From Candidatus Cloacimonadales bacterium (GTDB lineage Bacteria > Cloacimonadota > Cloacimonadia > Cloacimonadales > JAFGVF01), in NCBI GenBank assembly GCA_963677495.2, contig CAXXOU010000001.1:672001-736000 (forward strand): DNA of 64,000 nt, in the 5' to 3' direction. A program made the position numbers and the translations under genes. Every line of letters starts with the position of its first letter. Position 1 is the stretch's first letter. Below are positions 32,921 to 63,942 of this stretch, in pieces. The notes under the pieces were generated by a model. It was not told where the DNA came from and ran no database searches. It worked only from the letters and a program-made list of their open reading frames with translations.

Positions 32921-33066
32921 CTCATTGCTCTCTCATAATTCACATCCCTCAGATATCAGTATCCTGACATTTTCCTAGTAGTCTCTTATTGATTTTAATA
33001 GGAGAGCCCCAAGAGACTCCCAGGAAAGCTACCAGTTTTGCCAACTTATTATGACAGAGCAATGAG
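32921..33066. repeat. 146-bp inverted-repeat-bounded element, copy E1
   Basis: CTCATTGCTCTCTCATAA / TTATGACAGAGCAATGAG (17/18 inverted match). Confidence 0.8.
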
Positions 33067-33216
33067 GGTCCAATAGCACCTTGCAATCGTCCCAAGACTT
33101 TCTCAATGGTGCTCTTTCCTACCACAACTCCTGTGTACCTTATTCTGATAAACTCAAAAAAATAGTGCAGACTTAGGAAATCCATCATAACTGACATTGG
33201 TTTACCTTTCATTATT

Positions 33217-33446
33217 CAGCCCATATAGGGCTGTTGTTATGGGTGTATTTGTTACCCTAGGTCATTCGACCTAGGGCTATTCATTTTAAGCCCTAAACGG
33301 GCTTTTGGTACCAATAAAGAGATAGAGTAACGCACTTACTCAAGTTGTACTGTTTTGTACCTTATCCTGAAGGGATAATCCAATGTTAGCCATGGTGCTT
33401 TAGCCCATGGAAATGAATAGATTGTCAACCCGACCCTGACGGGGTC
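33217..33446. repeat. Two oppositely oriented three-hairpin REP-like elements
   Basis: Hairpins at 33217-33233, 33255-33276, 33289-33303 and 33363-33377, 33390-33410, 33432-33446; related to 63007-63134. Confidence 0.7.
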
Positions 33447-33597
33447 ATCCTAAAAGAATACAACTTGTTCGATTCCGCAATTCTGACACTCCTGCAGATA
33501 AACCTTGTTTTATCTAATGAACAATCTCGGTAATCCCCTTAAGAAATTATCATCATTTTAATTGACAGGATTAGTTTCTTTACATAAACAAAGTACT

Positions 33598-34677
33598 ATG
33601 AAATGTCCAATATGTAAGCAAGAACTTAAGTTGAAGCAAGAAGATGAGCATTCTATCTATGAATGTGAGCAATGTAAAGAGGTGTTTGTTAGTCTTACTT
33701 CCATTAAAAACAGCGGTAAAGATGTAGATATTCTAACTCAATTACGCAAAGATACTATGGAGCACGGACTACCGGGTAACATCTGCCCCAGTTGTTCAAA
33801 ACAGATGAAGGCAAAACCTGCTCCCGGGCTGCATTTGCAACCTATGGTTGAATATTGCGAGACATGTAATTTTATCTTTCTCAAGCGAGCGAGCTATGAT
33901 GCAATCCCTGAACGGGAGATTGTTGATGAATATGATAATCTCACTGAGGAGAGTGTGGAAGCTCTCAAACAAATATCCAAAGATTTAGATAAGAAGATTA
34001 AAGCACGAGGTATCGAAGACGAGAAGATGTACACACCATTCGAAAGAATAATGATGTATTTCGTCCCTAGATTGATAGGAGTCCCAAAGATTAAAGGTAT
34101 TCCACCTATCACAGCAATATTGTGTGGAATCGGGTTAATCTTCTCACTTATACCAAGCGGATTAATCTGGAAAGCATTTGAAAACCCAATGCTATCCGGC
34201 AGACACATGATGTTTGATTTTGCAGTTTCAGCAGGTTTTCTTGGAGTCTATATAGCATTTATCTTCGGAGCAAGACTTGAGGAAACTATCGGTTCTAAGA
34301 ACTTTCTGCTCTTCATTATCTCAACTTATGTCGTATCCTTTGTATTGAGATTATTATTCAACCCACAAGCTGCTGTTTCGGGAGGTATGCATGTCTCAAT
34401 TGCGATGGCTGTACTCTTCTCATTTCTATTCACTTTTGCCCGACTGAGAGGGATATTTTTCTTTAGAATATACACAATTCCTGTTTGGTTCTTTACTCTC
34501 ATAATTGCTATTTTTAGTGTAATTATGCAAACTCTAATGGGCTTTAGTCCAGCTAGTTTAGTTTTCTTCATTGTAGTCTTCGGTATGCCTACACTATTCC
34601 TTTTCGCTCTGGGAGGAAAGAAAAAGATATTAAAGGATGCCGGATTAGAAGAATTTATCAATATTGGTAGTTATTAA
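33598..34677 (+). CDS. Double zinc-ribbon plus rhomboid-like membrane protein
   Basis: Four CxxC pairs; FIFGARLEETIGSKNFLLF rhomboid-like segment; about six TM helices. Confidence 0.7.
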   Translation: MKCPICKQELKLKQEDEHSIYECEQCKEVFVSLTSIKNSGKDVDILTQLRKDTMEHGLPGNICPSCSKQMKAKPAPGLHLQPMVEYCETCNFIFLKRASYDAIPEREIVDEYDNLTEESVEALKQISKDLDKKIKARGIEDEKMYTPFERIMMYFVPRLIGVPKIKGIPPITAILCGIGLIFSLIPSGLIWKAFENPMLSGRHMMFDFAVSAGFLGVYIAFIFGARLEETIGSKNFLLFIISTYVVSFVLRLLFNPQAAVSGGMHVSIAMAVLFSFLFTFARLRGIFFFRIYTIPVWFFTLIIAIFSVIMQTLMGFSPASLVFFIVVFGMPTLFLFALGGKKKILKDAGLEEFINIGSY

Positions 34678-34696
34678 TCGGGGAGAACTCTTCCAT

Positions 34697-34785
34697 TTTA
34701 CCACGGATGAACCACGGGTAATCCACGCCCAAACCCCGCGAGCCGTGGTTAACCCGTGGATTACCCGTGGTCAACCCGTGGTAAA
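34697..34785. repeat. Dyad-symmetric 11-bp-periodic array
   Basis: CCACG at 34701/12/23; CGTGG at 34744/55/66/77. Confidence 0.85.
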
Positions 34786-34814
34786 GTATGCCACATCGGG
34801 CAGAGATTTAACAG

Positions 34815-35654
34815 TTAAATATAGCTTTTGAGTAGTTCAATCTCCTGTGACCAAATATCTTCGTTGGGAGTCTCCAAAATCAGTGGTATATCATTGAATC
34901 TACTGTCTTTCATAATTAGTTTGAAAGGGGTTAATCCTATCTTTCCTTCTCCTAAACTATCATGTCTATCGACTCTAGAGAGATGCTCTTTCTTGGAATC
35001 ATTAATATGCATTCCCATAAGTTTATCAAAACCTACTATCTTCTCAAACTCAGCAAAAGTTTTGAGAAACTCATCCTCTGTTCTTATGTCATATCCTGCA
35101 GCAAACATATGGCATGTATCAATGCAGACACCAACTCTGGAAGAGTCTTTTACCTGCTCCATAATCTTAGCTAAATGCTCGAAACTGTATCCTAGATTTG
35201 AACCTTGTCCGGCAGTATTCTCAATCACTGTAATCACATTTTCGGTCTGAGCATGTGCCTTGTTGATTGAATCAGCAACCAATGCTAGTGATTCATCTTC
35301 TGTGATAGCTTTCAGATGACTACCGGGGTGAAAGTTAAGCAGTTTAAGCCCAAGTTGGTTGCACCGATGAAGTTCTTCGATAAAAGCATTTAAAGATTTT
35401 TCTCTTTTCTCAGGATCAGGATGCCCTAGATTTATTAGATAGCTATCATGTGGAAGGATTTTATCTAGTTTGAACCCATGTTTTTCACAGCTACTTTTAA
35501 ACTCTGTAATTGACTTCTCAGTCAAGGGTTTTGCTGTCCATCTTCTTTGATTCTTAACGAATAGAGCAAATGTGTTAGCTCCAATTTCTACTGCATTAAG
35601 AGGTGCATTTTCAACACCACCTCCGGCACTTACATGTGCTCCTATATACTTCAT
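34815..35654 (-). CDS. nfo: Endonuclease IV
   Basis: [41 protein letters not shown]. Confidence 0.96.
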
Positions 35655-35777
35655 TTTAACTCCTGTTTCATAATAAAAACAATCTAATGATAATACTCTT
35701 TTTTGCAAGCTTAACCTGTCTATTTTAGCAATATCAACTAAAAAAAGGATTGCAGAAAATCACACACTTATATTACA

Positions 35778-41650: not shown

Positions 41651-44600
41651 ATGAAACGGATCACATTACTTTTAGTAATTTCATTCATGTTACTTAATCT
41701 GTTTTCCACGCCAACAGGCGTAACAGCCACAATTCCTGATGACGGACAGGGATTTTGGTCTGGCAACAGAGCGGTAGAGGGACGACCTGAGCTTAATATT
41801 ACCAGCTCAGAGACAACAAGTATTAATCATGAAAGATGGCAGGAAGTCAGTAGAATCGAGTTTGATGAGTACTTAGAACCCGGTACATATCTCGGTATTG
41901 AATACAACCCATGGAACTTCCAATTCACAAAAGTATCTAATCAATCCGGTTTAAACAGTGTAGCAGAAAGTGCAATTGCACGAGCTCCGGAATGGTTGAA
42001 ATCTCAACTAAGATATACACTTTCCCAATTGAGTAACTCCAGACAAACTGTCTGGGGGAATACTATCTTAGATGCTGTTACTCCATACATTGATGAAGTA
42101 TGCTATGCAGTTGCATGGTCATCACCGGGATATCTTACAAGACAAGATATATATCCTGAGCTAATGCATGAGAATGCACGCTTGATGTATGATATAGCTG
42201 ATGAGTTGCAGTTTGTTTCTATTGTTGATCAAGGTAATGAAGCGTCCGGAGATTGGTATTCAACTACTCAGTACCGCAAAATGGATGAGTTTGGTATCGA
42301 AAGATGGGTTACAGTTGATAGAGATACATATTATATGTATGTTGTGCATCCCAAGATTACTGATGAAATCCCAAACTATATAGATCCTGACCACTCAGAG
42401 TCTAATTCAAGTCATGCTAATAACTTTGCCGAGCCACCGGTTGGACGTTTCTGGAGAGAATATCTTTATTATCATAATGATGATGGCTACCCTAAACTAA
42501 GAGACATGCTTGCAAACTGTCAGTATGTGATGGGTTCTCCGGTTTCTGAAGAGAATGCTATTATGCAAATAAACAGTTGGGTCTCTCAATCAATGGTTTT
42601 TACTTCAGAAGCTGAAAGACCACATCAACCGGTTAGAATCTATGACAAGCATATTGGTAGATGTGGAGAGCATCAGGATTTACGGGGTGCATGTGGAAGA
42701 ATAGCACTTATTCCGACTAAGGGAATCAATTGTATCTCAGGTGACCATGTATGGAATGAGTTCTGGGATGAGAGATGGATTCATTGGGATGGAGGAGGAA
42801 ACTCTTTAGATAATCCACTGCTATATGAGAACGGATGGGGAAGGCATTACGGTTCAATATTTGAACAACGCTCAGATGGTAAATTCATCCCTGTATCAGA
42901 CAAATACTCTGATGGATATGCAACTCTGAATATCTGGGCTATTGATGCTGAAAATAACCCAATAGACGGTGCAAGTGTATATTTAAGAGTTGAAGTTGAT
43001 GGTGATCCATACTTTGATAATGTAGGGGTTACTGATGATACAGGTCTTTGTACATTTATCGTTGGTGAAGATAGGAAGTATTATGCCAGAGTGAATAGTG
43101 TAATTCAAAATATGCCATCCTCCGGATACGACCTGCTTGTTGATAATGCAGCTAATAATGCTGTTTACGACTTTACCTTCCAGGCAACTCAAACGATGAT
43201 GGTTCCTGATGTTTCTTATACTCCGGTTCCAGATAGTACAGGCACACAATACAAGATAGAAACTCATTTCTTCTCAAACAGGTCACTTATTATTGGAAAC
43301 TCAGTATTTGATGATGCAAGTGGGGGTTTACACTACCAAGCTGATTATTCTAATGGAGGAGCTGATCTGTATATGACAGACAGTATTAACTTTGCTGCCG
43401 CTACTTCAGGCTTGCCTTTTGCAGCTTTTCATAGTTATCACGATATGGAAGATATATGGGTCCAATTCTTTACAAATACTGATGACTTCTGGTATTCCTT
43501 CTTCATGAATGGGCATAATGTAGTTAATCCTAAGCATGTCCAAGGTAGTTTTGTAATCTATACAACTGACCCAGAATATCAGACAGGAACAATGGATATC
43601 ACAGTGCTAAATGAAAATGAAGAGCCAATCCCCGGTGCTACAATTGTATTGGAACCTAATGATATTTCTTTTGAAGCAACAGAAAGCAATATATCAATAG
43701 ATGTTGCACAAGGTACCTATGATGTATATTGCTATCCGGGAGAGGATAATCCTAATTATCTACCTACAGCCTTTACCGGTGTTTATGTTTCTGCTGGAGA
43801 AATAGAAGTTCTAGAGTTTGTATTAGAAGAAAACGCGAATCCTGTAAGTAGATTAACTGCCGTGGATGAAGGTCAACAAGTTCATTTATCTTGGGAAGGA
43901 TGTTTCAATTCAACCCGTGACCTTGAATCAATCAGTCTTTTCAGGGGTGAAGTGAACTCCGAGCTTACAATAAATGATGGAAATCTTTATCTTGTTGCTG
44001 AAATGGAGCAAGGAGATTCCTATATCGATACTGATTGGAGTCAGCTTCCAAGCAATGTCTATAGATGGATGATTGTAGCAAACTATACAGGTGGAGAGCA
44101 CTCGATACCTGTTTATTCAAACATCATTGAAAAAGATATGACTGTTGCTGTTGACTTCAATATTACTACAAATACAGATATAATTCCTGATGGTGCAATT
44201 ATCACTCTTACAAATTATGATGATGTAAGTAGTCATCAATATGAAGGGATATATGAGAATCAAAGCTGTATTTTACCAAATGTATGGTTGGGAGAATACT
44301 ATCTGACTGTTACCTTCGCTGACTTTGAGTTTTATGATGATGATTTGCTAATTACAGCAGACGAGACTATAGATGTTGAATTGATTCAAAACTTAACAGT
44401 TCCAGGCAATTGTAGTGTTTCGGAAGGAGTTCTAAGTTGGTATCCATGCAACTTTGCTACAGCTTATAAAGTCTATCTTGATGGCACTCTACAAACTGAA
44501 ACAACAGAAATAGATTACACATTCGCAGGACTATCAGCAGATGTTAACTACTTAGCTGGGGTTAAAGCTGTATATGAGACAGGTGAGTCAGAGCTTTATG

Positions 44601-50883: not shown

Positions 50884-50914
50884 AAAAAAAGCGAAGATTC
50901 TCACCTTCGCTTTT
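50884..50914 (-). terminator. Terminator of glyS operon
   Basis: AAAAGCGAAG/CTTCGCTTTT stem plus A-tract. Confidence 0.8.
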
Positions 50915-50940
50915 GAAATAAATTTCGATCTTCTATCTAA

Positions 50941-51690
50941 CTATACATCAATGACTTTATAGTCAATAAGCTTCTTCACATAGTTGTTGATCATGACATA
51001 ACTGAATGGTACTGTCACCAACAAACCTAACCCTAGTAGTGCTGCTCCAGCAATATTTAAAAGAAAGAGAAATACCCAAATAAAGAATAGTTTCCATCTA
51101 ACGTCTCCTAACTTTTTGTAACATAGATGAACCGCTTTGAATGGATTCATTTTATACTCACTCACAAGAAACGGAACAGGAAGAATTATTGATGGCCAAT
51201 AAAGTACTAGAACAATTCTAACCAATCTTAGGATGGGATCACCAATACAGATATACTTAATCACGAAAAATGCTAAGAAGTTCATGAATGCAAACAGTAG
51301 CATTTGTGGATAAAAATTGAAGTTTGCAAAGAAATCCTTAATGTTTGCTTCGTCCTCTTTAGCTCTTGCAAAAACTCTGAATGGAATAAAGGCAAGTGGA
51401 GTAACAAGGATAAACAGACCATTATAAATTATATAATTCAAGAATTGGTTCTGATGCAAATCAACAGTTGCATGAAGTATTGAAATACCAATAATGGGCA
51501 ATATTGCCAGAAAGGTTAAGAGGAAGCCAATAGCCAGATTATGATTAACCTTACCCTTATAACTCTCTCGCGTATCTTTCAACACTGATTTGAAAGATAA
51601 ATCCTTCTTTAACAACTCTGATTGATGACCACATGAATCACACCATATCTGAGTGGCTTCAAGTTTATTATTACAATGCTTACAACGCAT
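50941..51690 (-). CDS. Zinc-ribbon membrane protein
   Basis: CKHC..CDSC; TM segments; GLGLLVTVP. Confidence 0.75.
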   Translation of the reverse strand: MRCKHCNNKLEATQIWCDSCGHQSELLKKDLSFKSVLKDTRESYKGKVNHNLAIGFLLTFLAILPIIGISILHATVDLHQNQFLNYIIYNGLFILVTPLAFIPFRVFARAKEDEANIKDFFANFNFYPQMLLFAFMNFLAFFVIKYICIGDPILRLVRIVLVLYWPSIILPVPFLVSEYKMNPFKAVHLCYKKLGDVRWKLFFIWVFLFLLNIAGAALLGLGLLVTVPFSYVMINNYVKKLIDYKVIDV

Positions 51691-51701
51691 ATTTACTCCG
51701 T

Positions 51702-53798
51702 TTATTCGTTTCCTTCGACAACTATTTTGTTTAAGTCAGATACATTCATGAACAACTCTCTGATCTTAGAGAGAAGTGCATATCTGTTGTTCTTTATCTT
51801 CTCATTATCTGTATTGACTAATACTTCATCAAAGAATCTATCAATATGAGCGCCAAAATCAACCAGATAATCCATTATTTTTATGTAATCACCAATCAAT
51901 AGTTCCTGCTTAATATTGGAAGCAAGTTTACCGTATTCCTCATATAACACTTTTTCTGCATCATCTGTAAGATACTCTGCAGAGAGTTCTGATATTGACT
52001 TAGCTTTTGCTATTATGTTAGAAACTCGTTTAAAGCCGAGTACCAATGTCACGAAACGTGGATTAGCTTTAAACGACTGAAGATCAACAGCACGTTGTTT
52101 TAAGTCGGAGAGACTTGAACCTTCAATATGTAAAACACTATCAATGATGTCATAATCCACTTTATACTGTTGAAGTAACCAGCTAGTTCTCTGTTTAAAG
52201 AAGTTAAGTACAAAATCCTTATTGTGACCAACTTCAGAAAGCTTGCTTGCCACAACTTCAAAGGCCTCATCTATTAGCTTTGTTAAATCCAGGTTCCATT
52301 TGTATTGCTCAATAATCTGAACAACACCGTTTGCAGCTCTTCTAAGTGCAAATGGGTCATTTGATCCGGTTGGAATAACATCAACACCAACGATACCACA
52401 AACAGTATCAAGTTTATCCGCAACTGCAACTAATGCCCCAATCTCAGAGCTTGGTAAAGAATCGTTCTGACCTCTTGGCATATAGTGTTCATAAATACCA
52501 AGAGCTACATCTTTATCTTCACCTGTAGCAAGTGCATACTTCATTCCAATATAACCTTGCAACTTAGTGAACTCTTTCTCTCCAAGCATAAGTGTGACTA
52601 AGTCTGCTTTTGCAAGAAGCGCACAACGCTCAGCTTTGGCTTTAGTTTCAACTGAAAGCCCAAGAGTATCAGCCATATATTTTACAATCTCTATCACACG
52701 CTCACTCTTTTCCTTGATTGTGCCTAAGCTTGCTTGGAAAGTTACTTCTTCCAGCTTAGGGACAAACTCAGCAAGTGAGTGTTTAGTATCTTCTTGATAA
52801 TAGAAGATGGCATCATCGAGTCGTGGTCTGACGACCTTTTCATTACCATCTCTAATAATGTCAGAGTAATTAGGGTTTCCATTAGATATAAAGACAAATT
52901 TATTCGATAAGTTACCCTTTTCATCTCTTAAGGAGAAGTATTTCTGATTCTGACTGACTGTTGATGTGATAATCTTATCAGGTAAGCTTAAGTATGATTC
53001 TGGGAACTCTGCTAGTACGGGTGTAGGATACTCAACTAAATCACAAACAGTATCCAACAATTTGCTATCAGGAATCATCTGCAGGTCTGTTTCACTTAAG
53101 AGCTCATTAACTCTATCAACAATCATCTGCCTACGTTTGTCTCTATCAGCTATTACAAATCCGGCTCTTGTTACTTGTTCATACATCTCCGCTTCAGGTA
53201 TTCTTAACTCATAGGAGATCTCAACAAATCTATTACCATAAGTCTTATCTGCTGATTCAAGATGTTCTACTTTAACAGGAATCACTTCATCATCAAGCAT
53301 TGCCACAATCCAACGAACCGGACGTGCAAAGTTCATCCTAAACGCACCCCACTTCATTGTCTTAGGGAAAGTGATTTGATTCACGGCTTCAGGTATAATT
53401 TCGAGCAGAATATCTTTAGTCGCTCTGCCCTTAACTTCAAGTTTTACAGCAATGTATTCACCTTTAGGAGTTTCCTTAATGAATATGTCCTCTTCAGTAG
53501 CTCCGGCTCCACGTAAGAAACCTTTTCCTGCTTTTGTGAGTACCTTATTCTCATCGAAGGCAACTCTAGTTGCAGGACCTGTTCGCTCTATAGTTTTGTC
53601 CTTCTGCATTGCTTGCAGACCAGTTATAACTAAAGCGAATCGTCGCGGAGTTGAGTAAGGTTTTAACTCATCATAGGAGAGGTTGTTCTCCTTAAGTTTC
53701 GTTGAAATATAACCTGTGAGTTTTGTAATTGCCGGTTTAATATAAGAAGCAGGTATCTCTTCGACACCTACTTCAAAAAGAAATGTATGTTTAACCAA
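51702..53798 (-). CDS. glyS: Glycine--tRNA ligase beta subunit
   Basis: FEVGVEEIP, TPRR, FPKTMKWG, FARPVRW, EFTKLQG, TGSNDPFALRR. Confidence 0.97.
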   Translation of the reverse strand: MVKHTFLFEVGVEEIPASYIKPAITKLTGYISTKLKENNLSYDELKPYSTPRRFALVITGLQAMQKDKTIERTGPATRVAFDENKVLTKAGKGFLRGAGATEEDIFIKETPKGEYIAVKLEVKGRATKDILLEIIPEAVNQITFPKTMKWGAFRMNFARPVRWIVAMLDDEVIPVKVEHLESADKTYGNRFVEISYELRIPEAEMYEQVTRAGFVIADRDKRRQMIVDRVNELLSETDLQMIPDSKLLDTVCDLVEYPTPVLAEFPESYLSLPDKIITSTVSQNQKYFSLRDEKGNLSNKFVFISNGNPNYSDIIRDGNEKVVRPRLDDAIFYYQEDTKHSLAEFVPKLEEVTFQASLGTIKEKSERVIEIVKYMADTLGLSVETKAKAERCALLAKADLVTLMLGEKEFTKLQGYIGMKYALATGEDKDVALGIYEHYMPRGQNDSLPSSEIGALVAVADKLDTVCGIVGVDVIPTGSNDPFALRRAANGVVQIIEQYKWNLDLTKLIDEAFEVVASKLSEVGHNKDFVLNFFKQRTSWLLQQYKVDYDIIDSVLHIEGSSLSDLKQRAVDLQSFKANPRFVTLVLGFKRVSNIIAKAKSISELSAEYLTDDAEKVLYEEYGKLASNIKQELLIGDYIKIMDYLVDFGAHIDRFFDEVLVNTDNEKIKNNRYALLSKIRELFMNVSDLNKIVVEGNE

Positions 53799-53824
53799 AG
53801 ATATATTCTCCGTTTATATTTATT

Positions 53825-54757
53825 TTAGAATGAATACTTCAAAGAAACTTGATTTATATATCCCAGATCACCATATCCTGAGATTGCATAATCAAGCACA
53901 AACTTCTGCCAGAAGAATCCAAAGCCAAATGATGTTCCAGCTAAAAAGTCAGTTTTTGAACCCGTTCTCCAATCAGTTGCATCAAGCTTGTATCCACCTC
54001 TTACGGCAAACATAGGATGTACAGATGCATCAACACCTATTGCACTACCAACATCTTGACCATAAGCCTTGTCAACTTCAAGATTAGCATATACTTTGTC
54101 AGAGAACTTATAACGTAAACCGGCGGCATAAGTTATAGGAAATTTTTCATCATGTTCACTATCTGAAAAATGAATAATCTGATAACCTAAGTTCCTAATT
54201 GCTAAACCGATTTTCATCCTTTCGTTAACAGGTTGGTGGACAATGCCTAAGTCAATAGCCACAGCTGTTGCACTATTGTCATCTATTGTTTCCATTAAGT
54301 ACTTAGCATTAACACCAATTGTCAGCATCGAATGTATTACTCTAGAAAATGTAGCACCAACTAAGATATCTGAAGCACTGAAAGTACCTTCATTAATTCC
54401 ATCTGAGTTGTATTTATCTATTTCTCCACTGTTAATATATTCTCCGTACAAAGCGAATGATTGGTTTTCTCCGGGACGGTTATAAATAACTGATCCACCA
54501 TTATAGCCATCAAAATAACTAATATATGAGGTACTGATATAGCGTTTATTAACCTCTTTCAAAGCAGCTGGATTGTAGTGGAAAGCATCTACTTCACCAC
54601 TCATAGCTGTGTATGCTCCACCTAAAGCTGCAGCTTTTGCTGAATAATTTATCTTAAGGAAGTTAAAACCGTTTGTACCGGCATTATCATCAATTGCACC
54701 AAGTGAAACGATCAGTAGCAGTATACTACTTGTTATTAAGCTCTTTATTAACTTCAT
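53825..54757 (-). CDS. Second PorV/PorQ-family beta-barrel
   Basis: FNFLKI..SAKAAALGGA...YNPAAL, LDYA, terminal YSF. Confidence 0.85.
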   Translation of the reverse strand: MKLIKSLITSSILLLIVSLGAIDDNAGTNGFNFLKINYSAKAAALGGAYTAMSGEVDAFHYNPAALKEVNKRYISTSYISYFDGYNGGSVIYNRPGENQSFALYGEYINSGEIDKYNSDGINEGTFSASDILVGATFSRVIHSMLTIGVNAKYLMETIDDNSATAVAIDLGIVHQPVNERMKIGLAIRNLGYQIIHFSDSEHDEKFPITYAAGLRYKFSDKVYANLEVDKAYGQDVGSAIGVDASVHPMFAVRGGYKLDATDWRTGSKTDFLAGTSFGFGFFWQKFVLDYAISGYGDLGYINQVSLKYSF

Positions 54758-55223
54758 TCTCTATTCCTCTTAAAATCTTATATAAATGGTTGCTGTCTTT
54801 CTCCTCAAAAAGATTCATTCTATTTGAGGTTTGTCTCAGGTAATTTGTTAAATGCTTTAGCATTAACATATAAACATGACTTTCACTTATAGGGGAAGCT
54901 GTTAAAACCACTAACTTCACGGGTTCATCATCAACAGCTTGAAAGTCGATTCCCTTATCTAGTAGAAACACTACGGACCTAACAGTTGAGACCAGTTCAC
55001 TCCTTCCATGGGGTAGGGCGATTTCACGACCGATTCCGGTGCTCATTATCGCTTCTCGCTCCATTACGGTATCCAAAAAGACTTGCTTGTCTTCGAGAAC
55101 TCCCCGCTTATCAAGCAAATCAACCATTTTAACTATACATTTTTCTTTATCTTCAACTTCGATTCCGGTAAAAACAAGTTCCGGTTCAAAGAGAGTTACG
55201 TTATTTTCCATAATATATTCCAT
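54726..55223 (-). CDS. PTS EIIA type-2 (Ntr/fructose-like) protein
   Basis: RE.IMSTGIG..IALPHG, DDEPV; start may be 55211. Confidence 0.9.
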   Translation of the reverse strand: MEYIMENNVTLFEPELVFTGIEVEDKEKCIVKMVDLLDKRGVLEDKQVFLDTVMEREAIMSTGIGREIALPHGRSELVSTVRSVVFLLDKGIDFQAVDDEPVKLVVLTASPISESHVYMLMLKHLTNYLRQTSNRMNLFEEKDSNHLYKILRGIENEVNKELNNK

Positions 55224-55354
55224 TTATATATATATCAACGTCAAGTCAATTTTTTTTAGTTATATATAATTGCAAGCGAGTTTTCCTTTATTATTCAACC
55301 TTCAAAACTATATCTCTGACAGTAGTGTTAATTGATGAAATTTACCTGGCAACA

Positions 55355-55433
55355 CTTGACCTTCCCTTGGGTTACCCTTGCCCCTCTCTTGCAACGCAAG
55401 GGAGACCCAAGGGAAATGCAAGAGGGATTCTAG
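55355..55433. repeat. Dyad-symmetric 11-bp-periodic array
   Basis: CTTG at 55355/66/77/88; CAAG at 55397/408/419, CTAG at 55430. Confidence 0.8.
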
Positions 55434-55500
55434 AGAAAATCAGTAACTACCATTACGGAAACAAGCTATCAAAAAACGAGAAGTAATCAATTGCATAAAG

Positions 55501-55530
55501 AAAAGCCTGCCGATTCACACCGACAGGCTT
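55501..55530 (-). terminator. Terminator after C25 peptidase
   Basis: AAGCCTG/CAGGCTT stem plus A-tract. Confidence 0.65.
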
Positions 55531-55557
55531 AAACAGATTAATTTATCTAAAGAAGTA

Positions 55558-58500
55558 TTACTTCATAAGAAGCATTTTCTTTGTCTTAACGTAGTTGTCT
55601 GTCTCCATTCTATAGAAGTAAACACCTGAAGAAACCTTACGATTGTTACTATCAGTGCCTTTCCAAGTAATTGTATGGTTTCCGGCATTTCTGTATTCAT
55701 CAACAACAGTAGTCACTTTCTGACCGAGGATGTTATAGATATGAAGAACAACATCACTATTCTCTTTAAGAGAGAAAGAGATAGTAGTAGTTGGGTTAAA
55801 TGGATTCGGATAGTTACCATTCAGAGCAGTTTCTACTGGAAGGATGTTATTCTCATCATTATCAAGAACATTAGAAACTGTTACAACAACTGTATGCGAA
55901 TTATTATGTGGATCGTTTGAGTTGATTGTAATAGACTCAGTTAACTCTTCACCTTCAACAGCTGTATGCAGAACAGTGAAAACTTGAGATTCACTAGCTT
56001 CGATAGCGAAGTTTTGTGATTCTACAAGAGTGAAACCATCAGGCATTATAATAGAACCTGTTAAGGTTTCATTACCTGCATTCTGAATTACAAACTCACG
56101 ACTTACTTCAGTGTTTGCTTGTACGTCTGTAAACTCAATCATACTCTGAACACAGTTGAAGATTGGCATGTTTAAACCACCTGTAGCACCACCCGGCATT
56201 ACAAGATCATCTATCCAAGCACAGTCAGAACCATCAGCTTGTGACCAGTCTTTATCATATTTCCAAGAGAAAGTATGTGTACCCGGCTGAACTGAATATA
56301 CAAATTGACTCCAACCAACTTCTCCTGACCATCTATCCACTTGAGTATTTCCATCATAGAACTCAAGCCAGTCATAGCTACCTTCAGAAGAAACTTTATA
56401 CCAGAAGCTTAACTCTCCTGCAGCAGCGATATCAACTGTAACACTCATTGATGTGCTTGCGTTATTACCAATGCTGCCTGATTTTGCACTATAAGCACCG
56501 TCATGTACTTCTTGAGTGTTAATCTGCCAATCTGATGAGCCTCCCATTGTCCAGCCAAGCATTGAAAAATCACCTGATTCGAAGTTGTCGCCACTTAAGC
56601 CAACAGGTATAAGATAGTTTTCAACATGCTCACCACAATCAGCTGCTACAGAAAGACCGAATACGATAGCTGCATCGTCATAGTCTCCCGCAAGCTGTAT
56701 TGGGAAAGAAGCGGTGTTGTTTCCACCGGCTGTTAAGTTTCCAAGAGTAATACTTGGAGAAGCAACAGTAACGTTAGGATTACTGATAACAAAATCAACT
56801 CTTGCATTTTCAGCAGTCATATGACCTGCATTAGTTACAGTAATATCTATTGTAGCACCTTCACCCGGATCAAGAGCACCGTCTCCACTGTTATCAGTTA
56901 CAGTGAAGTTGCTAAGCTCAAACTTAGGAGCATTTGCCTGTAAGTATACACTAGATGTCCATACATCGTTATGATCACCCATTGTTACAGTAAACTGGAT
57001 ATTATGCTCATCCGGTACATTAGAACTGATTCTGATTGCATATGCATCATCAACAGTTACTTCATCATTAGCAGTAACCTCAGAGAGGTCAGCCATGTTA
57101 TCAATAATTGTTACATAAGGGTCGTCAGTAGCTAAAGTAGCACTAACATTTGTAACACCGGCATTACCAATGTTAGCAATAGTAACATCTATGTATGCTT
57201 CTGTGCCTGCATTAATAGATGTAGCTTGGTCAATTACAAAGTTAGGTACATTAAGATATGGACCATCATTTGGAATAACCTGAATAGTTGTTTCGTATGG
57301 CTGATAACCATAAGCAGAAGATACAAGTTTAATATCACCTGCAGTTGTAATTGCTTCAAAATCGAAATCAATGAAACCTGTTCCATCTGCGAGTGCAGTA
57401 GCAAGAATCTCTCCATTATCTGAAAGTGCAACATAAGCATATGGAGCAACATTCATAACCATATTTGTCTGACCAATAAAGATCTGATCAGGGATATTTG
57501 TAGTTTGAACTTCACCTTGTCCAATATATGGCATAAGTGATGGATCACCCATAATTGAGTAGATTTCCCAGTAGTAGTTGATACGAGAGCTATTACCTTC
57601 TGTAACTGCTAAGTTACCCATATAAATCATGGCACCTGCAGTTGTTACCCAGTCTTCATAAGCTTCATTGTGCTCATGGAAAAGACCATCATAAACACCA
57701 ACTGCATTAGCAATCCAAGGTGTTCCACTTCCTGTAATAGGTTTGTTACCTACTGCCCAGTGATAATCTTCATCCCAATATGTTGAGTTTGTTCCACCGA
57801 TGTAGATAACTCCACCTTTATCATTAGCTCTTAACCAAGCTTCACCAAAACATGTATCTGTCTGGAAGTGGTTTGTAAGACAACAGTTACCAACAACGTA
57901 TGAGTACTGTCCTGAGTTGCTTAAACCGTTAACATCACTATTTGTGAATTCAGGATCTGACCACTCTTCGTAGTAACCATGAGCTGTGTAGTTCACATAT
58001 CCTGCGCCATTTGAAACATCAGAGATAATTGCATTAGATGAGCTACCTGAGTTAGGGTAAAGGTATGTGTGTGATGTGATACCATGAGCTGCATTGAAGT
58101 AGTTCTGTGTACCATAGTTAATAGCACCATTACCATGAGAAGAAGCATAGTTACCGTCAACACCGGCAATCATAACAACTTCGTCCAAGTAACTTGGATC
58201 AGGCATAAGGTATTTCTCGTACATGAGAGTTTTATCAACCTGTGGCTGTAATTGGCTTACGTTCTGAGCAGAGAATCTTCCATAATACATTTCAGGAAGA
58301 TAGTCATTACCTTGTAGTTTAACATAGTTTAAGTCAGTTATATGACTGTCTGTAGCACCATTAAAAGCAGGAACCTGTGCAACGTCACCAACAATAAGTA
58401 AATACGATGGGGCTGGATGGTCAACAGTTGCTGAGTTCCAGATACCACTAATATAATTACTAATTGCAGTTGTAGATGTTCCGATAACATCTGTTGTTGC

Positions 58501-59319
58501 TACAGTAACCTGATAACCTTGTTCAGTTTTCCAATCAACGAATGGTTGAAGAGTAGAAACGAAGTTAGCAGGAGTAACAATGATATAACCTAATGGGTAA
58601 CGGTTAAGAGAAGTTCTGTTATCAGTATCAAGAGTAGCAAAAGCAGTTCTGTTTAACATGCTGTCAAAGTGATGTGAAGCAGTTCTAGCTTTTAAAGCAT
58701 TAGTTCTATCCATGTTACCATTCACATAGTCAACACGAACTTCAGCTTCTGTAATCACAGTTACTTCACCAGTTACAGGATTGTATGATACAGGGTAGTA
58801 ATCAACAGCAAACAAGCGTGCATTTCTCATAATACCAAGTTCTGTAACTTTGACAATCTCTCTATTTCTATCGTAACTTGAATAAGCCTTTTCATCAATA
58901 ACAAATTCAAGTTTAGAAACATCAGCACTCTTAGAAACAGATGCCTGATTTGGGATAATGCGACTATTAATTCCATATTCGCTTAAATTAAAAGTTCTTG
59001 AGTTCTCAACTTTAACTTCAGGAACGACTGCAGCACCTAATGGTACTTCAATAATCTTTCTTTCCATTGGAAGCTGTGGAGAACCTATTGTATTTGTATG
59101 GGTATACCCATCGATGCCGATTTCGGTGAATAACCCCTTAGTTGTTTCAACTTCAAACCAGTTAAGATTTGCAACATTAAACTCAATATCAACGCCATTA
59201 TTGCTTGAGCTAAGTAAAACTGATTCACTTCTTCCTGAATCAAGTTTAATACTTTCTTGTACAGCAAAAGCAGATAAGACAATGAGCATAGTAGTAATGA
59301 TTAATAATACCTTCTTCAT
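55558..59319 (-). CDS. Gingipain-like C25 cysteine peptidase with propeptide and CTD
   Basis: LLIVGD, GRFSA, YTAHG, GNCC, FGEAW, GDPS; NYPNPFNP...KMLLMK. Confidence 0.92.
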   Translation of the reverse strand: MKKVLLIITTMLIVLSAFAVQESIKLDSGRSESVLLSSSNNGVDIEFNVANLNWFEVETTKGLFTEIGIDGYTHTNTIGSPQLPMERKIIEVPLGAAVVPEVKVENSRTFNLSEYGINSRIIPNQASVSKSADVSKLEFVIDEKAYSSYDRNREIVKVTELGIMRNARLFAVDYYPVSYNPVTGEVTVITEAEVRVDYVNGNMDRTNALKARTASHHFDSMLNRTAFATLDTDNRTSLNRYPLGYIIVTPANFVSTLQPFVDWKTEQGYQVTVATTDVIGTSTTAISNYISGIWNSATVDHPAPSYLLIVGDVAQVPAFNGATDSHITDLNYVKLQGNDYLPEMYYGRFSAQNVSQLQPQVDKTLMYEKYLMPDPSYLDEVVMIAGVDGNYASSHGNGAINYGTQNYFNAAHGITSHTYLYPNSGSSSNAIISDVSNGAGYVNYTAHGYYEEWSDPEFTNSDVNGLSNSGQYSYVVGNCCLTNHFQTDTCFGEAWLRANDKGGVIYIGGTNSTYWDEDYHWAVGNKPITGSGTPWIANAVGVYDGLFHEHNEAYEDWVTTAGAMIYMGNLAVTEGNSSRINYYWEIYSIMGDPSLMPYIGQGEVQTTNIPDQIFIGQTNMVMNVAPYAYVALSDNGEILATALADGTGFIDFDFEAITTAGDIKLVSSAYGYQPYETTIQVIPNDGPYLNVPNFVIDQATSINAGTEAYIDVTIANIGNAGVTNVSATLATDDPYVTIIDNMADLSEVTANDEVTVDDAYAIRISSNVPDEHNIQFTVTMGDHNDVWTSSVYLQANAPKFELSNFTVTDNSGDGALDPGEGATIDITVTNAGHMTAENARVDFVISNPNVTVASPSITLGNLTAGGNNTASFPIQLAGDYDDAAIVFGLSVAADCGEHVENYLIPVGLSGDNFESGDFSMLGWTMGGSSDWQINTQEVHDGAYSAKSGSIGNNASTSMSVTVDIAAAGELSFWYKVSSEGSYDWLEFYDGNTQVDRWSGEVGWSQFVYSVQPGTHTFSWKYDKDWSQADGSDCAWIDDLVMPGGATGGLNMPIFNCVQSMIEFTDVQANTEVSREFVIQNAGNETLTGSIIMPDGFTLVESQNFAIEASESQVFTVLHTAVEGEELTESITINSNDPHNNSHTVVVTVSNVLDNDENNILPVETALNGNYPNPFNPTTTISFSLKENSDVVLHIYNILGQKVTTVVDEYRNAGNHTITWKGTDSNNRKVSSGVYFYRMETDNYVKTKKMLLMK

Positions 59320-59396
59320 ATTATCTCCTTATATATCCATTTTATATACTTTATATCAACATTATATATTCAGTGTGCAAAAAGAGTTCCTAAACT

Positions 59397-60008
59397 CTAT
59401 TTTTTCACTTTTATCACCCAACTTAACCAGTTGAAATCTCTTCCCATTATGTCTTCAGTTCGCTCGAAATGAACTATATCATACCTTCTGGAAATCACCT
59501 TCTCAATCTGTCTCTGAGAGTAACGAACCTCTTTGCGTCCATCTTCAAGCTCGATCTCACCACTCCCCTCTTTCAAAGAAAATCCGATATATCCATCTAT
59601 CTCAATCTCTTTAAAGAAGTTTAGTATCCCGCTTACATCTAGATGTTGCAGGGCAGCATTCACAAAAATATGTTTAACTGTTGTATTGCCTATGAACGAA
59701 TTCAAGAATTCCACATCAGAGAAGTCGATAACATAGGAACAACACGGAATCTTCTGCTTCAAATTCAAGACTATGTCTATAACATAATCACTTCCACAGA
59801 CATTGAAACCTTTTTCATGAATATATTTTAAGCAATTGCCCGAACCACTACCAAGTTCTAGGATTAACTCCTTCCTATTTGGTAGTGCTCCCAAGAAGCT
59901 GTTCACAAAACTTTCCGGCACAATATTGACAGTCATCTTGCCGTATTCCTGCCAATTCTTTTCATAATACTCGTATGTATTAGTTGCTTTATCTTTTTTA
60001 TTTTCCAT
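59397..60008 (-). CDS. Class I SAM-dependent methyltransferase
   Basis: ILELGSGSG, NAALQH, SLKEG.GE. Confidence 0.82.
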   Translation of the reverse strand: MENKKDKATNTYEYYEKNWQEYGKMTVNIVPESFVNSFLGALPNRKELILELGSGSGNCLKYIHEKGFNVCGSDYVIDIVLNLKQKIPCCSYVIDFSDVEFLNSFIGNTTVKHIFVNAALQHLDVSGILNFFKEIEIDGYIGFSLKEGSGEIELEDGRKEVRYSQRQIEKVISRRYDIVHFERTEDIMGRDFNWLSWVIKVKK

Positions 60009-60162
60009 AACTAAACATCATTTTAGGCATAGGTGTTGGGGTCAAGGAGATATTATTTAAGTCCTAGTTAAAAGAGCAACATAGTTTGCACGGAATTCTT
60101 CAGCCTGTCAGGATGTAGCTTTTAAGCGAAGGTTCTTGGAGCGAGAACGAAAAAAGTAAACA

Positions 60163-60557
60163 GTACCTTCTGAATGGTTGCAGACCTTCAGAATGGTGCA
60201 CTTCGAAGGGAAAGCACCTCACAATTGTAACGAAACCCGCTTCGAATGACGGAATTAGCGAATCACACTATCGATGCAATTCACTTCTTCCTACTTCATC
60301 AAGAGCATTTTATTCTCTCATATTCTGAAGCAGTCACCAGTACGACCAACGGGAGTTTGGGGAAATGCGTACTTCGAAGCAAAGCGATTTATTGTCTCAA
60401 CACCTGTACCTTTGGAATGGTTGTAAACCTTGCAAATGGTGCACTTCGAAGGGAAAGCACCTCGCAATTGTAACGAAACCCGCTTCGAATGACGGAATTA
60501 GCGAATCACACTATCATTGCGATTCACTTCTTCCTACTTCATCAAGAGCATTTTATT
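60163..60557. repeat. 152-bp direct duplication (60163-60314 and 60406-60557)
   Basis: 141/152 identical by hand count; each begins with a family A REP and ends with the last 8 codons of 60534..62582. Confidence 0.92.
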
Positions 60558-62582
60558 GCTTTTCTGCTCCTTGTTAGTTTTCACAACTGAGAAATACACA
60601 CCGGTTGCAACTGTGTTATTATGTTCATCAGTCCCATCCCATTTGATGTTATATCCACCTTTTGGTTTGAAACCTTTGTATAGTTGTTTGACTAATTGTC
60701 CTCTGACATTGAAGACAGTAACCTCCACATCTCCACTTTCCGGTATTGAATAGCTGATAGTGGTAGATGGGTTAAAAGGATTAGGGAAATTCGTAACTTC
60801 TATGCTTGATAGTTGTGGTGAGATTTCATACTCATCATTGTAAGTTGTATTCTGAATTAGAAATATATCGGATTCATTCCAGCTATAGTCTGCATTTACC
60901 TGTTTATGAACATACAAAGAATCATAGAAAACTCTTTGAACCACAAACTCATATCTACCTGCTGTAAGAGGTAGTTCATAATATCCCAGACTATCACTAA
61001 TAACAAATTCGCTATAGTCATAAGCATTATGTATCAGGACATAAGGTACAATCTCATTATTCCCTGTACTCTTACGTGTATAACCTTTTATACCCCCAAG
61101 AGCAGGTGCACCATATTCATAAGGTCCAATATCAGGTTGAGCTATACCGTCTCCATCTCCATCCCAAAAACGTTCAGTAAAACCACCTGCATACTCGCAC
61201 CAGTTTAATGTGTCAACCCAACAACCTGCATCAATAGCAGGAGAACCGGGTGCAGGTCTAAAGTCTCGACCTTCATAATCGACAAATAGATTAGCAATAC
61301 TGTCAGGATCTACATATATATTACCACCTAGGTCAATCATATTATTACCAACTATTGAAAAGTCGATTATGCAGTTTTTGAAGCTCTTCTCATAATCCCA
61401 TGGTTCTTCAAATAAATAATCATTCCCAACAATGATTGAATTAACCATTGTACCATTGTAAACATCATATTCACTATCAATCCCTAAGTTATTGTGATTA
61501 TTGGCTAAACCTGGAACTGAAGGGTAATCAGTTATAGCATAAGCAATTTGATTTGAAAAATTAATAGAGCTAGGAGACGGTCTTGCGTTATTATAAATAT
61601 TATTAATAAAAGAACTTGGTAAAGAAGTGTTCATCTCATTTCCTTCAAAATAATTGTTTACTAGATGCACTTCACCACCATCTATACTTTCATCTCCACC
61701 AATAAAACGATTTCCTCTTAAGTGTGCTGTATCATACACACGTAATGCAGTGCTGGCATTCTCAAAAACATTTTCATAAAAGAAATTATATACTTTATCA
61801 CAATCTATTATTCTTCTACTGAAGATATCATTGCAATTAAAACTATTATATGCCCATTGAACATTATCCGTATCAGATCTAAGATCAGTTAGGAAACTAT
61901 TATTAGCAATAATTCCTACATTTGAATCATTATCATTCCACCGTATATCAATCGCTCCTTCAGTTACAGTCATATCATCAAAAAGAATCTCGTCATCAAA
62001 ACTAAAAGAACAACCTGTTATCTCTATTTGATTATCATGAACAGGGCTTTCTATAGCGTTCCAACAATTATAGAAGTTACAGTTATTTATGATAAGGTTA
62101 GTGCAATTAGCAGAAATTGCCCCATCAAGCCAATAACCTACATAGAGCATTATATCAGAACTATACTCGAAATTGCAATGTTTGAAAACACCCCATTCAC
62201 TCTCATAAAACATTAAGATACTACCCCAGAAATACTTGTAATTATCCTGTAATCTTGTGAAAAGTATAGGTTCCTCTTCTGTCCCTTCAGCAAAAATGTT
62301 TCCATGGCACCACACTATCTTATGACCGTTGTTTCCTCCATCGTACTCAACACCAGCAAGATATTGGTTAAAATCTAAAATCTCTCTTGAGCCTATTCTA
62401 ATTTCAGTTCCGGGTAAAATTCTTAAAGTTACTCCTTCATTAATAATCAGATTTCCAACTATTTCAACCGGATTATCACTTGAACTCCATATTGTATCTT
62501 CTGTCATAGTACCACCGACTTGGATAGAATTTAAACTAACCAATGTGAACAGTAGTATCACAAGCAAAGATAATCCTTTCAT
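60534..62582 (-). CDS. Secreted beta-helix protein with choice-of-anchor-Q-like motif and CTD
   Basis: Signal peptide; SPAIDAG...DIGPYEY; NFPNPFNP...KMLLMK. Confidence 0.85.
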   Translation of the reverse strand: MKGLSLLVILLFTLVSLNSIQVGGTMTEDTIWSSSDNPVEIVGNLIINEGVTLRILPGTEIRIGSREILDFNQYLAGVEYDGGNNGHKIVWCHGNIFAEGTEEEPILFTRLQDNYKYFWGSILMFYESEWGVFKHCNFEYSSDIMLYVGYWLDGAISANCTNLIINNCNFYNCWNAIESPVHDNQIEITGCSFSFDDEILFDDMTVTEGAIDIRWNDNDSNVGIIANNSFLTDLRSDTDNVQWAYNSFNCNDIFSRRIIDCDKVYNFFYENVFENASTALRVYDTAHLRGNRFIGGDESIDGGEVHLVNNYFEGNEMNTSLPSSFINNIYNNARPSPSSINFSNQIAYAITDYPSVPGLANNHNNLGIDSEYDVYNGTMVNSIIVGNDYLFEEPWDYEKSFKNCIIDFSIVGNNMIDLGGNIYVDPDSIANLFVDYEGRDFRPAPGSPAIDAGCWVDTLNWCEYAGGFTERFWDGDGDGIAQPDIGPYEYGAPALGGIKGYTRKSTGNNEIVPYVLIHNAYDYSEFVISDSLGYYELPLTAGRYEFVVQRVFYDSLYVHKQVNADYSWNESDIFLIQNTTYNDEYEISPQLSSIEVTNFPNPFNPSTTISYSIPESGDVEVTVFNVRGQLVKQLYKGFKPKGGYNIKWDGTDEHNNTVATGVYFSVVKTNKEQKSNKMLLMK

Positions 62583-62701
62583 TATTCCTCCGATAACAAG
62601 ATTATGATTACAATTCTTTTTATGTCAATAGGAAAAGAGCAGAGATTTGCCTTTTTGTTTGAATAGTGCAATACCTGTAGGATTGAAATGTTTTGGGTAT
62701 C

Positions 62702-62726
62702 GTAGTGCGAGTGTCCACACTTGCAC
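62702..62726 (+). repeat. GTAG-type REP-like hairpin
   Basis: GTAG foot then GTGCGAGTGT-CC-ACACTTGCAC. Confidence 0.55.
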
Positions 62727-63006
62727 ATAGCTTGAAAAGCTATATTGTGGAAGCTTTTCGTGAACTGAAATTAGTATTGACTGAAGAGATGTCAGCTGTA
62801 GAGAACATACTTGGAATGTAATATTCTAAATTACGGTCAGTGGAAGCTGACGACTCTGTCGTCACAGCAACTCAGGAGAGTCGCAGTACAATGTAATGCG
62901 AGTGCTCTCAATTGCTCAAAACTCATTCAGCTTGTTTTAGCCTTGAAAAGGCGTCTGTTCAATAGTCACATGCTTTGGCATGTGGTAAACTTAATCTAAA
63001 AAGATG

Positions 63007-63134
63007 TAGCCCTAAAGGGGCGTAAGATTAACATTATTAGCGATCAGGCGCCCCTTCAGGGCTAATCTTGACCGTGAACTTTAACCCCAAGCGACAAGTC
63101 GCATGGGGCTATTGAACAATCGCTCTTTCAGAGC
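63007..63134. repeat. Multi-hairpin REP-like element (GCCC-n-GGGC family)
   Basis: TAGCCCTAAAGGGGCG / CGCCCCTTCAGGGCTA, CCCCA..TGGGG, GCTCTTTCAGAGC. Confidence 0.7.
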
Positions 63135-63188
63135 TTAATATTTTCCATTACTATTCCTTATTTTCTCTATTACAATTCCTGCGAAACA

Positions 63189-63261
63189 CTTTGGCATTAC
63201 TTGAGCAACACTTGAGGATATGCCCAAGAATTGGACAAGTGATTCGCAAGCTATTCGGAAG
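63189..63261. repeat. Dyad-symmetric 11-bp-periodic array
   Basis: CTT(T/G) at 63189/200/211; CAAG at 63225/36/47, GAAG at 63258. Confidence 0.7.
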
Positions 63262-63314
63262 AGATGAATTACTATTGTAAGAGAGAAAAAAATGAAAATA
63301 CCATCTGCAATCTG

Positions 63315-63545
63315 TACCTTTGGAATGGTTGAAAACCTTGCAAATGGTGCACTACGAAGGAACTAATCGCATTTTAGGGAGTTTGCCGGAGTTGAACGCA
63401 GTGAAACAATAGCGGACTTCCTAAATTCTTAAGTTGAATGATACACTTCGAAGGAAGAAACACCCCACCGTTAAAACGGCACCCCTCTACAAGAGGGGAA
63501 TGTCCAAGAGCACCATTTCGAAGGTCTGCAACCCTTCGAAAGGTA
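63315..63545. repeat. Inverted pair of family A REPs (63315-63350, 63510-63545)
   Basis: Two 36-bp copies facing each other, enclosing further hairpins such as 63461-63501. Confidence 0.85.
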
Positions 63546-63604
63546 GAATCGAATTGCCACAGTTCGCTATTGCCCAACTCCCTGAAATGCGGTCAAATCT
63601 CCTC

Positions 63605-63751
63605 CTCACTCCTCTGCCACAATTCTAGACTTTATTCCATCTCAAACTTCCCAAAAACGTATCAGTTACCTGTTAAGGAAAAACAACATTTCAATAGGGT
63701 TTCAATAGGTGTCTCCTTGGAAATGGATAACAATTGTAGCAGAGCAATGAG
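63605..63751. repeat. 147-bp element, copy E3
   Basis: CTCACTCCTCTGCCACAATT / AATTGTAGCAGAGCAATGAG (17/20); internal TTTCAATAGG twice at 11-bp spacing. Confidence 0.75.
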
Positions 63752-63814
63752 ACTTTAATCACTATTAGCGATATGCTTCAATACCCAATTTCATCTTCTT
63801 ACTACTCATTCGCT

Positions 63815-63942
63815 ACCCGTTAGCTTCCCGTTAGATCCCCGTTAGAAACTCGTTATTGAGAATGGGAATTGGATTGGAGTCAGATGGGTATAAGATGCAA
63901 GTTCGATTACTATTAAGATAGTGCAACTAAACACGATGTCCA
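63815..63942. repeat. Inverted copy of 47588-47715
   Basis: CCCGTTAG three times at 11-bp spacing plus homologous flank. Confidence 0.85.

Follow-up and report, generated by a model that had tools for sequence, protein, structure and literature searches.

The question raised by a 64,000-nucleotide stretch of the genome of a Candidatus Cloacimonadales bacterium (G000:C1:672001-736000, called here the window; the assembly has 3.41 Mb in four contigs, C1 to C4, and 37% G+C) is what kind of DNA its short intergenic elements with inverted ends represent. An earlier note, made from the letters of the window, had described three of them, E1, E2 and E3, together with degenerate candidates of similar length, and had offered a MITE (miniature inverted-repeat transposable element), an invertible segment, a structured RNA or a protein-wrapping site as explanations. 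The window elements belong to an old superfamily confined to one genus, which comprises about 100 non-coding modules of three families, A, B and C, and rare variants with other cores. Common to all are bipartite 18-bp inverted ends, a span of 144 or 145 bp, and a family-specific core of two to four words in one half. We lean, tentatively, towards the view that old modules of MITE-like origin have been retained here as platforms of double-stranded DNA on which proteins dock, in a fixed helical register.

Loci were gathered by nhmmer profile searches seeded with single copies, which yielded 143 non-overlapping loci in the genome, 101 of them scoring above 50 bits. Type A, with E1 and E2, accounts for 96 loci (54 above 50 bits), type B, with E3, for 18, and type C, represented in the window at 47601-47744 and 63786-63929, for 29. 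Elements of families A and C are 144 bp long and those of family B 145 bp, despite their unrelated interiors. A few copies keep the ends and the 144 bp yet hold four or five TCCCGAGAGAG-type words instead.

The 10-mer AGAGCAATGA occurs 38 times in the genome on both strands, against approximately 7.6 expected, and upstream of most of its copies stands ATTATGAT or ATTGTRGC. Exact pairs of the 10-mer are found only twice genome-wide, both times at 144 bp. A weight matrix of the whole 18-bp end has 164 matches, which form 64 inverted pairs at most 6 kb apart: 48 of these are at 144 bp, one at 143 and two at 145, and the remaining 13 are scattered singles joining the ends of neighbouring elements. 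The earlier note had named two outcomes that would speak against it, the lack of a genome-wide spacing peak and a known insertion sequence with these ends; the peak at 144 bp is sharp (51 of the 64 pairs at 143-145 bp), and no such insertion sequence was found. Among the same 64 pairs there is neither a second peak nor any recurrent distance above 145 bp, and therefore no longer element or insertion sequence has these ends. The inner 8-mer pair is ATCATAAT/ATTATGAT in family A and GCCACAAT/ATTGTRGC in families B and C, and the left end is more variable than the right one. Beyond the terminal TCA/TGA, a weaker CTN/NAG preference is seen 3 bp outward: among 102 ends, 64 have the C and 64 have the T. 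An end together with its 3-bp flank amounts to two CTNYCAY words 11 bp apart, that is, one helical turn.

Conservation was analysed in 48 family A copies of exactly 144 bp. Their 53 block columns have a mean pairwise identity of 0.867. In the 49 variable columns identity is 0.338 against 0.352 expected for independent columns, so these spacers are random or saturated, and for approximately 22 of the 48 copies even the most similar spacers elsewhere are no closer than in shuffled data. The blocks are both 18-bp ends, TTTCT near position 39, TTTC near 50, GTCTCTT at 60-66, CCCAAGAGACTC at 87-98, and GAATC at 103-107. The core is a tandem of 11-bp units, each with some 7-8 fixed and 3-4 free positions; there are two such units in A, two in B, and two to four in C. 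The 11-bp-periodic cores described earlier are confirmed in all three families, and period 11 is also the commonest tandem period genome-wide (463 of 1767 non-redundant arrays, with 74 more of period 22). Arrays of period 11 or 22 lie in long open frames in 108 of 537 cases, compared with 257 of 304 arrays of period 9. In family A, 40 copies have the core word AAGAGAC beginning at position 90, one copy has it at 101 and two have it at 112. These 3 of 43 copies are thus shifted by +11 or +22, and the total is still 144 bp, the right spacer being shortened equally.

The distribution of the family was followed with the family A pattern CAAGAGACTC-N28-ATTRWGABRGNG, which matches 40 times in this genome; the counts for its three congeners are 9, 2 and 1. 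No match was observed in 228 other Cloacimonadota (232 genomes scanned in all), and the reversed control gave 0 everywhere. Among 185,579 species genomes the pattern is confined to three records, all from Cloacimonadota; one bears the title Candidatus Zophobacter franzmannii. A metagenome scan produced 10 matches, three of which are real elements, all from distant relatives; a viral scan produced five chance matches, and plasmid and phage records none.

Two copies in the complete genome of a sister species are orthologous to copies at C1:241238-241381 and C1:780963-781106. Members of the first pair occupy the same nucleotide position behind a conserved terminator hairpin; in the second pair, about 110 bp of the left flank are common to both species. 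Block identity is 0.92 in the first pair and 0.91 in the second, with spacer identities of 0.45 and 0.71, respectively. Neither pair has an indel within the 144 bp, and the flanks do carry indels. At four-fold degenerate sites of the adjoining orthologous gene the species are 0.35 identical (n=111), and neutral sites are therefore saturated between them. The preservation of the blocks and the lack of indels at such a distance mean that both the blocks and the length are constrained in place.

Out of the explanations offered in the earlier note, a protein-binding DNA site is the one favoured here: judged from the sequences, the retention of blocks and exact spacing between species and the restriction of core shifts to multiples of 11 bp point to it. 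A sequence-specific protein would bind both ends symmetrically, and the same or a second protein would occupy the phased words of the core along one helix face. The intervening DNA would be held in a fixed helical register, such that indels would be forbidden except for compensated multiples of 11 bp. The modules would first have spread as MITE-like mobile DNA, and the younger blocks (family B and a composite of A and C) may still be multiplying in the lineage through an enzyme. Candidate roles of such a platform are nucleoid organisation, topology, and a sink for a DNA-binding protein. The match of the element length to that of a nucleosome is coincidence in a bacterium.

A possible parallel is found in the same genome. 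At C3:195900-196100 (minus strand), a porin-like gene and, after it, pstS-pstC-pstA-pstB-phoU are preceded by four TTAACA-like words spaced exactly 11 bp apart. This array is probably a Pho operator, and with this predicted operator the 11-bp word grammar would mark protein binding in this organism too. The ends of the elements resemble what we take to be the Pho box consensus. However, the Pho-box reading of the ends was rejected, as the pst operator uses TTAACA-like words and not CTNYCAY, and the genome has one Trans_reg_C gene. This sole OmpR/PhoB-type regulator gene lies at C1:363780-363998, and some 900 bp upstream of it there is an element of family B. A DnaA-box reading of families A and B was rejected as well: in the 48 copies of A and in the B ends, every column stays below a mean of 5.5 matches out of 9 to the assumed 9-mer consensus.

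Several observations weigh against the docking platform. Firstly, there are only two orthologous pairs, one of them within a generally better conserved stretch, and gene conversion among copies could likewise keep the blocks alike. Secondly, the 48 copies were picked for two well-scoring ends, so that decayed copies are excluded by construction, and of the 96 loci of family A, 42 fall short of 50 bits. Thirdly, 11-bp periodicity is absent from the whole-element conservation profile (p=0.48); phasing is evident in the core and the ends only, and the idea of thirteen 11-bp units running across the whole element was dropped on this ground. Fourthly, the genome has one OmpR/PhoB-type DNA-binding domain, whose likely operator uses other words, and no binding protein for the elements was identified. 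Finally, the elements occupy intergenic DNA approximately in proportion to its amount and without an orientation rule, as selfish DNA would; no gene family is enriched beside them, except for large surface-protein paralogs; and the multiplication of younger composite blocks means that part of the family still behaves like mobile or duplicating DNA.

The details of the genomic context are as follows. With crude open-frame calls as genes, no copy lies inside a called gene, so the elements are strictly intergenic. The 54 high-scoring family A copies fall into 28 tandem, 14 divergent and 12 convergent gaps, near the share of each class in the intergenic DNA, and each element end faces a gene start in 28 of the 54 cases. 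The copies are unevenly spread over the contigs (chi-square p=0.0002). GC skew is patchy and has no clear link with element orientation, as looked for in connection with replication-strand bias.

The main rival, possible although in our opinion rather unlikely, is a plain MITE family without host function, in which the blocks are no more than sites needed by a transposase and look conserved since only intact copies breed and were sampled, and in which the partner transposase has been lost or acts in trans with different ends. The typical traits are present, namely terminal inverted repeats, small size, no coding capacity and many copies. Inverted 18-bp ends, fixed length, about 100 dispersed intergenic copies without an orientation rule, two differentiated ends with the left one more variable, and the existence of low-scoring decayed copies are all consistent with this explanation. 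So is turnover: at two sites the sister species holds family A where our genome holds family D, an unrelated family described below, and family B was found in our genome alone, with 13 matches against 0 in 11 relatives. At other sites, copies are present in one genome and absent in another; the relatives are too distant, and no clean empty site was found. In bacteria, MITEs are often without a known transposase (PMC2229807).

What speaks against an ordinary MITE family is, above all, the orthologous copies. Their blocks are 91-92% identical where four-fold sites are saturated, and selection among lineages of copies cannot achieve this in a fixed copy. No pair of family A copies is close in the spacers, save two segmental duplicates with common flanks. 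No transposase or insertion sequence with the same ends, as the earlier note had suggested looking for, was found among end-pair distances, the ends of IS21- and IS3-type repeats, plasmid and phage records, or genomes outside the genus. A self-comparison of the genome revealed repeats with other ends: an IS21-type element in 17 copies, an IS3-type element in five, and paralogous surface-protein genes. Thus the MITE option stands as a plausible origin, given the dispersed, intergenic, fixed-length copies with inverted ends, and falls as far as a partner element with these ends is concerned. Target duplications, looked for as direct repeats of 1-9 bp at boundary offsets within +/-4 bp in 47 copies, were not observed, but saturation would erase old ones, and because neutral positions are saturated this comparison has no power.

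Younger events can be seen at the level of blocks. Together with a neighbouring repeat, the most similar copies of family B make up a block of about 420 bp, and a composite of A, a 96-bp spacer and C recurs at 10 loci with 69-87% identity. Such blocks have therefore multiplied more recently than the species split. These younger composites have ragged edges, at which no duplication is visible. Contigs from four runs of one sample, compared over 44001-64000 of the window, stop at repeats, and the joints stem from other copies.

Some observations on the insertion sequences may be added. The IS21-type element, encoding IstA and IstB, is 2.37 kb long, and its 17 copies, e.g. C1:926126-928495, are more than 99.7% identical and have repeated subterminal words at both ends. 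The IS3-type element of 1.5 kb, at five loci including C2:359326-360836 and C4:220847-222349, adjoins a small repeat family with ends TCTCAGCAGTAATT and with GCCAAGTGTTT words at 11-bp spacing. This insertion sequence may target the adjoining TCTCAGCAGTAATT/GCCAAGTGTTT repeats.

A wider form of the docking platform, which we consider doubtful and put forward as a speculation, is that the 144-bp modules and about 430 other intergenic 11-bp-phased arrays are the docking sites of an undescribed nucleoid-organising system, with word-specific proteins and symmetric anchors, seeded by mobile DNA and kept by the host. Between the anchors, the proteins would oligomerise on a single helix face and could thereby form positioned nucleoprotein particles of fixed DNA length.

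The other three explanations are unlikely. For elements of the bacterial interspersed mosaic element (BIME) or REPIN type, built on repetitive extragenic palindromes (REP) and moved by REP-associated tyrosine transposases (RAYT) acting on single-stranded hairpins, the likelihood is very low. The genome does have 14 matches to the Y1 transposase family, 13 of them over the curated cut-off; a family B element lies 486 and 725 bp from two of the 14 genes, REP-type hairpins are situated 150-210 bp from E1, and the elements are found in mosaic clusters with other repeats. However, of four Y1 loci examined, three have their own short GC-rich palindromes flanking the gene, and the listed inverted repeats of all four lack the 18-mers of our elements. 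Nor is the 18-bp end itself a hairpin, and arm pairing is not maintained. An array of period 11 or 22 lies within 1.5 kb at 6 of the 14 loci, against about 5 by a rough estimate from array density.

It is less probable still that the elements are switches, in which the 108 bp enclosed by the inverted ends would undergo inversion by a site-specific recombinase. The inverted repeats are of suitable length, the interior is asymmetric, and both orientations relative to genes are equally common. On the other hand, gaps between convergent genes, which have no use for a promoter, hold 12 of the 54 family A copies, and about 100 switches with unrelated interiors would be unprecedented. No promoter was flagged at the ends of E1 and E2 by a simple scan, and outward promoters in the ends were rejected as a candidate on this basis.

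The remaining explanation depends on the arms. The earlier note had suggested that the inner arms differ between copies and stay complementary within a copy. Within family A this was not confirmed in 29 copies from four genomes: 71.8% of the helix cells pair, compared with 71.9% after shuffling (308 of 500 shuffles at least as high), and the covariation score is 0.105 against 0.104. Changes in the terminal helix have no pair-keeping preference, with 16 cells becoming wobbles, 86 non-pairs, and 11 changed on both sides. When halves of different copies are joined, the DNA folding energy barely moves (-16.8 versus -15.9 kcal/mol; 259 of 5000 permutations as low). The ends of family B hold a fixed C/C mismatch at pair 6/139. 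The apparent covariation is the difference in inner 8-mers between families, and the arms are constrained as sequence, not as pairs. That the elements are structured small RNA genes closed by a terminal stem is therefore unlikely and close to refuted: single family A copies (E1 and E2, both strands) do fold better than shuffles as RNA (z from -4.3 to -6.9), as with any inverted repeat, but there is neither covariation nor an excess of wobble-compatible changes (16 against 86), the plus strand of E3 and E2b fold no better than shuffles (z of -0.65, +0.05 and +0.31), no Rfam family matches even at E-value 1, bar one chance match to a human long non-coding RNA model, and no strand preference relative to genes exists.

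Returning to the window, where the encoded proteins, with type IX secretion tails and a C25 peptidase, are in keeping with a Cloacimonadota bacterium, the existence of E1, E2 and E3 as bounded elements and their 10-mers agree with the earlier note, and its lengths of 146 and 147 bp do not: E1 and E2 have 144 bp and E3 145 bp, because conservation runs from TCA to TGA. E1 (family A, plus strand) spans 32922-33065, with the ends TCATTGCTCTCTCATAAT and TTATGACAGAGCAATGA and the core CCCAAGAGACTC at 33008-33019. E2 (family A, plus strand) spans 47361-47504, with the core CCCAAGAGACTC at 47447-47458 and one extra 11-bp unit before the core. It is followed, after a 96-bp spacer (47505-47600), by E2b (family C, plus strand, 47601-47744, 144 bp), which has the left end TGATTGCTCTCTCACATT and three CTAACGGG words in 11-bp steps; at its right end the inner part ATTGTGGC stands at 47727-47734, and the outer 10-mer has decayed (4 of 10 positions). 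E3 (family B, plus strand) spans 63606-63750, with the ends TCACTCCTCTGCCACAAT and ATTGTAGCAGAGCAATGA and the word TTTCAATAGG twice with an 11-bp step. E3b (family C, minus strand, 63786-63929) contains three times the CTAACGGG word, which on the plus strand appears as CCCGTTAG; the element forms the C half of a further A-C composite, whose A half lies just past the end of the window. The 10-mer AGAGCAATGA or its complement is exact at 32922-32931, 33056-33065, 47361-47370, 47495-47504 and 63741-63750. E2b and E3b had been listed as degenerate candidates at 47600-47745 and 63785-63930 and proved to be real members of family C. A third candidate, at 18408-18553, is not a member and falls into the separate family D with other ends.

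The intergenic gaps around these window elements are mosaics of several repeat kinds. Further short repeat families flank the elements at 47260-47307, 47738-47790, 47785-47837 and 63505-63548, with approximately 20-30 copies each at 82-97% identity. At 33217-33276, 150-210 bp to the right of E1, there are two GC-rich hairpins resembling those that flank the gene for a Y1 transposase at C3:348103-348444. At 63162-63287 the profile of family A has a weak and partial match (31 bits), which represents either a degraded copy or a different family of arrays. In a related species of the genus, the place orthologous to E2b (L028, 1000-1130) contains three CTCCCGTTGCT words and then AACGAG/AATGAG words; this array keeps the 11-bp phase of the CTAACGGG words of E2b, and the two may be orthologous and diverged.

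Family D has 66 loci genome-wide, is unrelated to A, B and C, and has other ends. Its window member, at 18445-18543, contains three CTCCCT words 11 bp apart beside a perfect 9-mer that we take to be a DnaA box. Such DnaA-box-like 9-mers number 154 in the genome against 42 expected, and 84 of them lie within D loci; in one subfamily, two inverted 9-mers form a 21-bp palindrome. A group II intron next to family D was considered and rejected, as the 2-kb repeat in question encodes an FG-GAP surface-protein paralog and has no Rfam match. The arms of 23S-IVP (GxxExxY) cassettes were rejected as a source of the element arms: the three loci, with four intact genes, use inverted arrays of 7-bp words, and none has these ends. 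These four intact genes (about 130 aa) are located amid such arrays at C4:488359-489111, C4:777157-777471 and C4:1489815-1490129. In two relatives (L039 and L082), a family A element lies 340-400 bp from a 23S-IVP gene.

Small dispersed repeats of bacteria are usually read as decaying selfish DNA or as RNA hairpins, and the pattern of changes in this family says otherwise: the blocks, the exact 144 bp and the 11-bp register outlast the saturation of synonymous sites, while arm pairing lapses. This suggests that mobile-looking DNA has here been retained as a platform of spaced protein-binding sites, a concrete and testable case in a phylum that to our knowledge lacks a cultured model for work of this kind. 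Bait sequences for finding the binding protein are at hand in the 18-bp end and the 12-bp core. Even if docking is the wrong explanation, the family is a well-delimited marker of one Cloacimonadota genus. New here are the ends, the fixed length, the core shifts of 11 or 22 bp at unchanged length and the findings on orthologous copies, with saturated spacers set against preserved blocks.

No description of such a family was found in the searchable literature on Cloacimonadota repeats, phased MITEs or the genus, and the main text of the genus paper, supplements aside, has no occurrence of "transpos-", "intergenic" or "mobile". Among known systems, DnaA-box arrays at origins and titration sites consist of opposed arrays of 9-mers with 2-bp gaps, which results in an 11-bp phase, and are anchored by strong boxes. 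Families A and B have no DnaA-box-like column, and it is the unrelated family D alone that has a likeness to DnaA boxes.

Our elements resemble REP/BIME mosaics with RAYT genes (PMC2817692) and REPINs in clustering with other motifs, in long vertical inheritance, and in the presence of RAYT genes in the genome. They differ in that the ends are not short GC-rich hairpins, the pairing of the arms is not maintained, and the RAYT genes examined here are flanked by other sequences.

Another near kind is that of the Correia elements (CREE/NEMIS) of Neisseria. These are described (PMC2229807; PMC2649163) as intergenic elements, some 105-155 bp long, that have a conserved core and terminal inverted repeats and are present in hundreds of copies, with an internal IHF site in one size class and no transposase demonstrated. 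Both families are thus intergenic modules of similar size with inverted ends and a conserved core, and for neither has a transposase been demonstrated. Correia copies are alike over their whole length and have TA target duplications, whereas here only the blocks are alike, the spacers are random, and no duplication is visible. Moreover, in our case families with unrelated interiors have common ends and a common length, and the core is a phased array of 11-bp words shifting by multiples of 11 bp only.

The word grammar itself is that of OmpR/PhoB-family operators. ArcA boxes and Streptomyces PhoP units consist of two to five direct-repeat words with an 11-bp centre-to-centre distance (PMC3798270; PMC2275107). 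The likeness extends to the 11-bp direct words, to units of which part is conserved and part free, and to the use of the same grammar before the pst operon of this very genome. However, those operators are single promoter sites, whereas here there are about 100 dispersed modules with inverted ends, in a genome with one such regulator but at least seven array words. The family, for which no partner gene was found and whose arm pairing is not maintained, differs from the nearest kinds, namely Correia elements, REP/BIME mosaics and REPINs, in three further respects: conservation is limited to blocks, the ends and the length are common to unrelated interiors, and the core is an array of phased words whose shifts are whole turns of the helix only.

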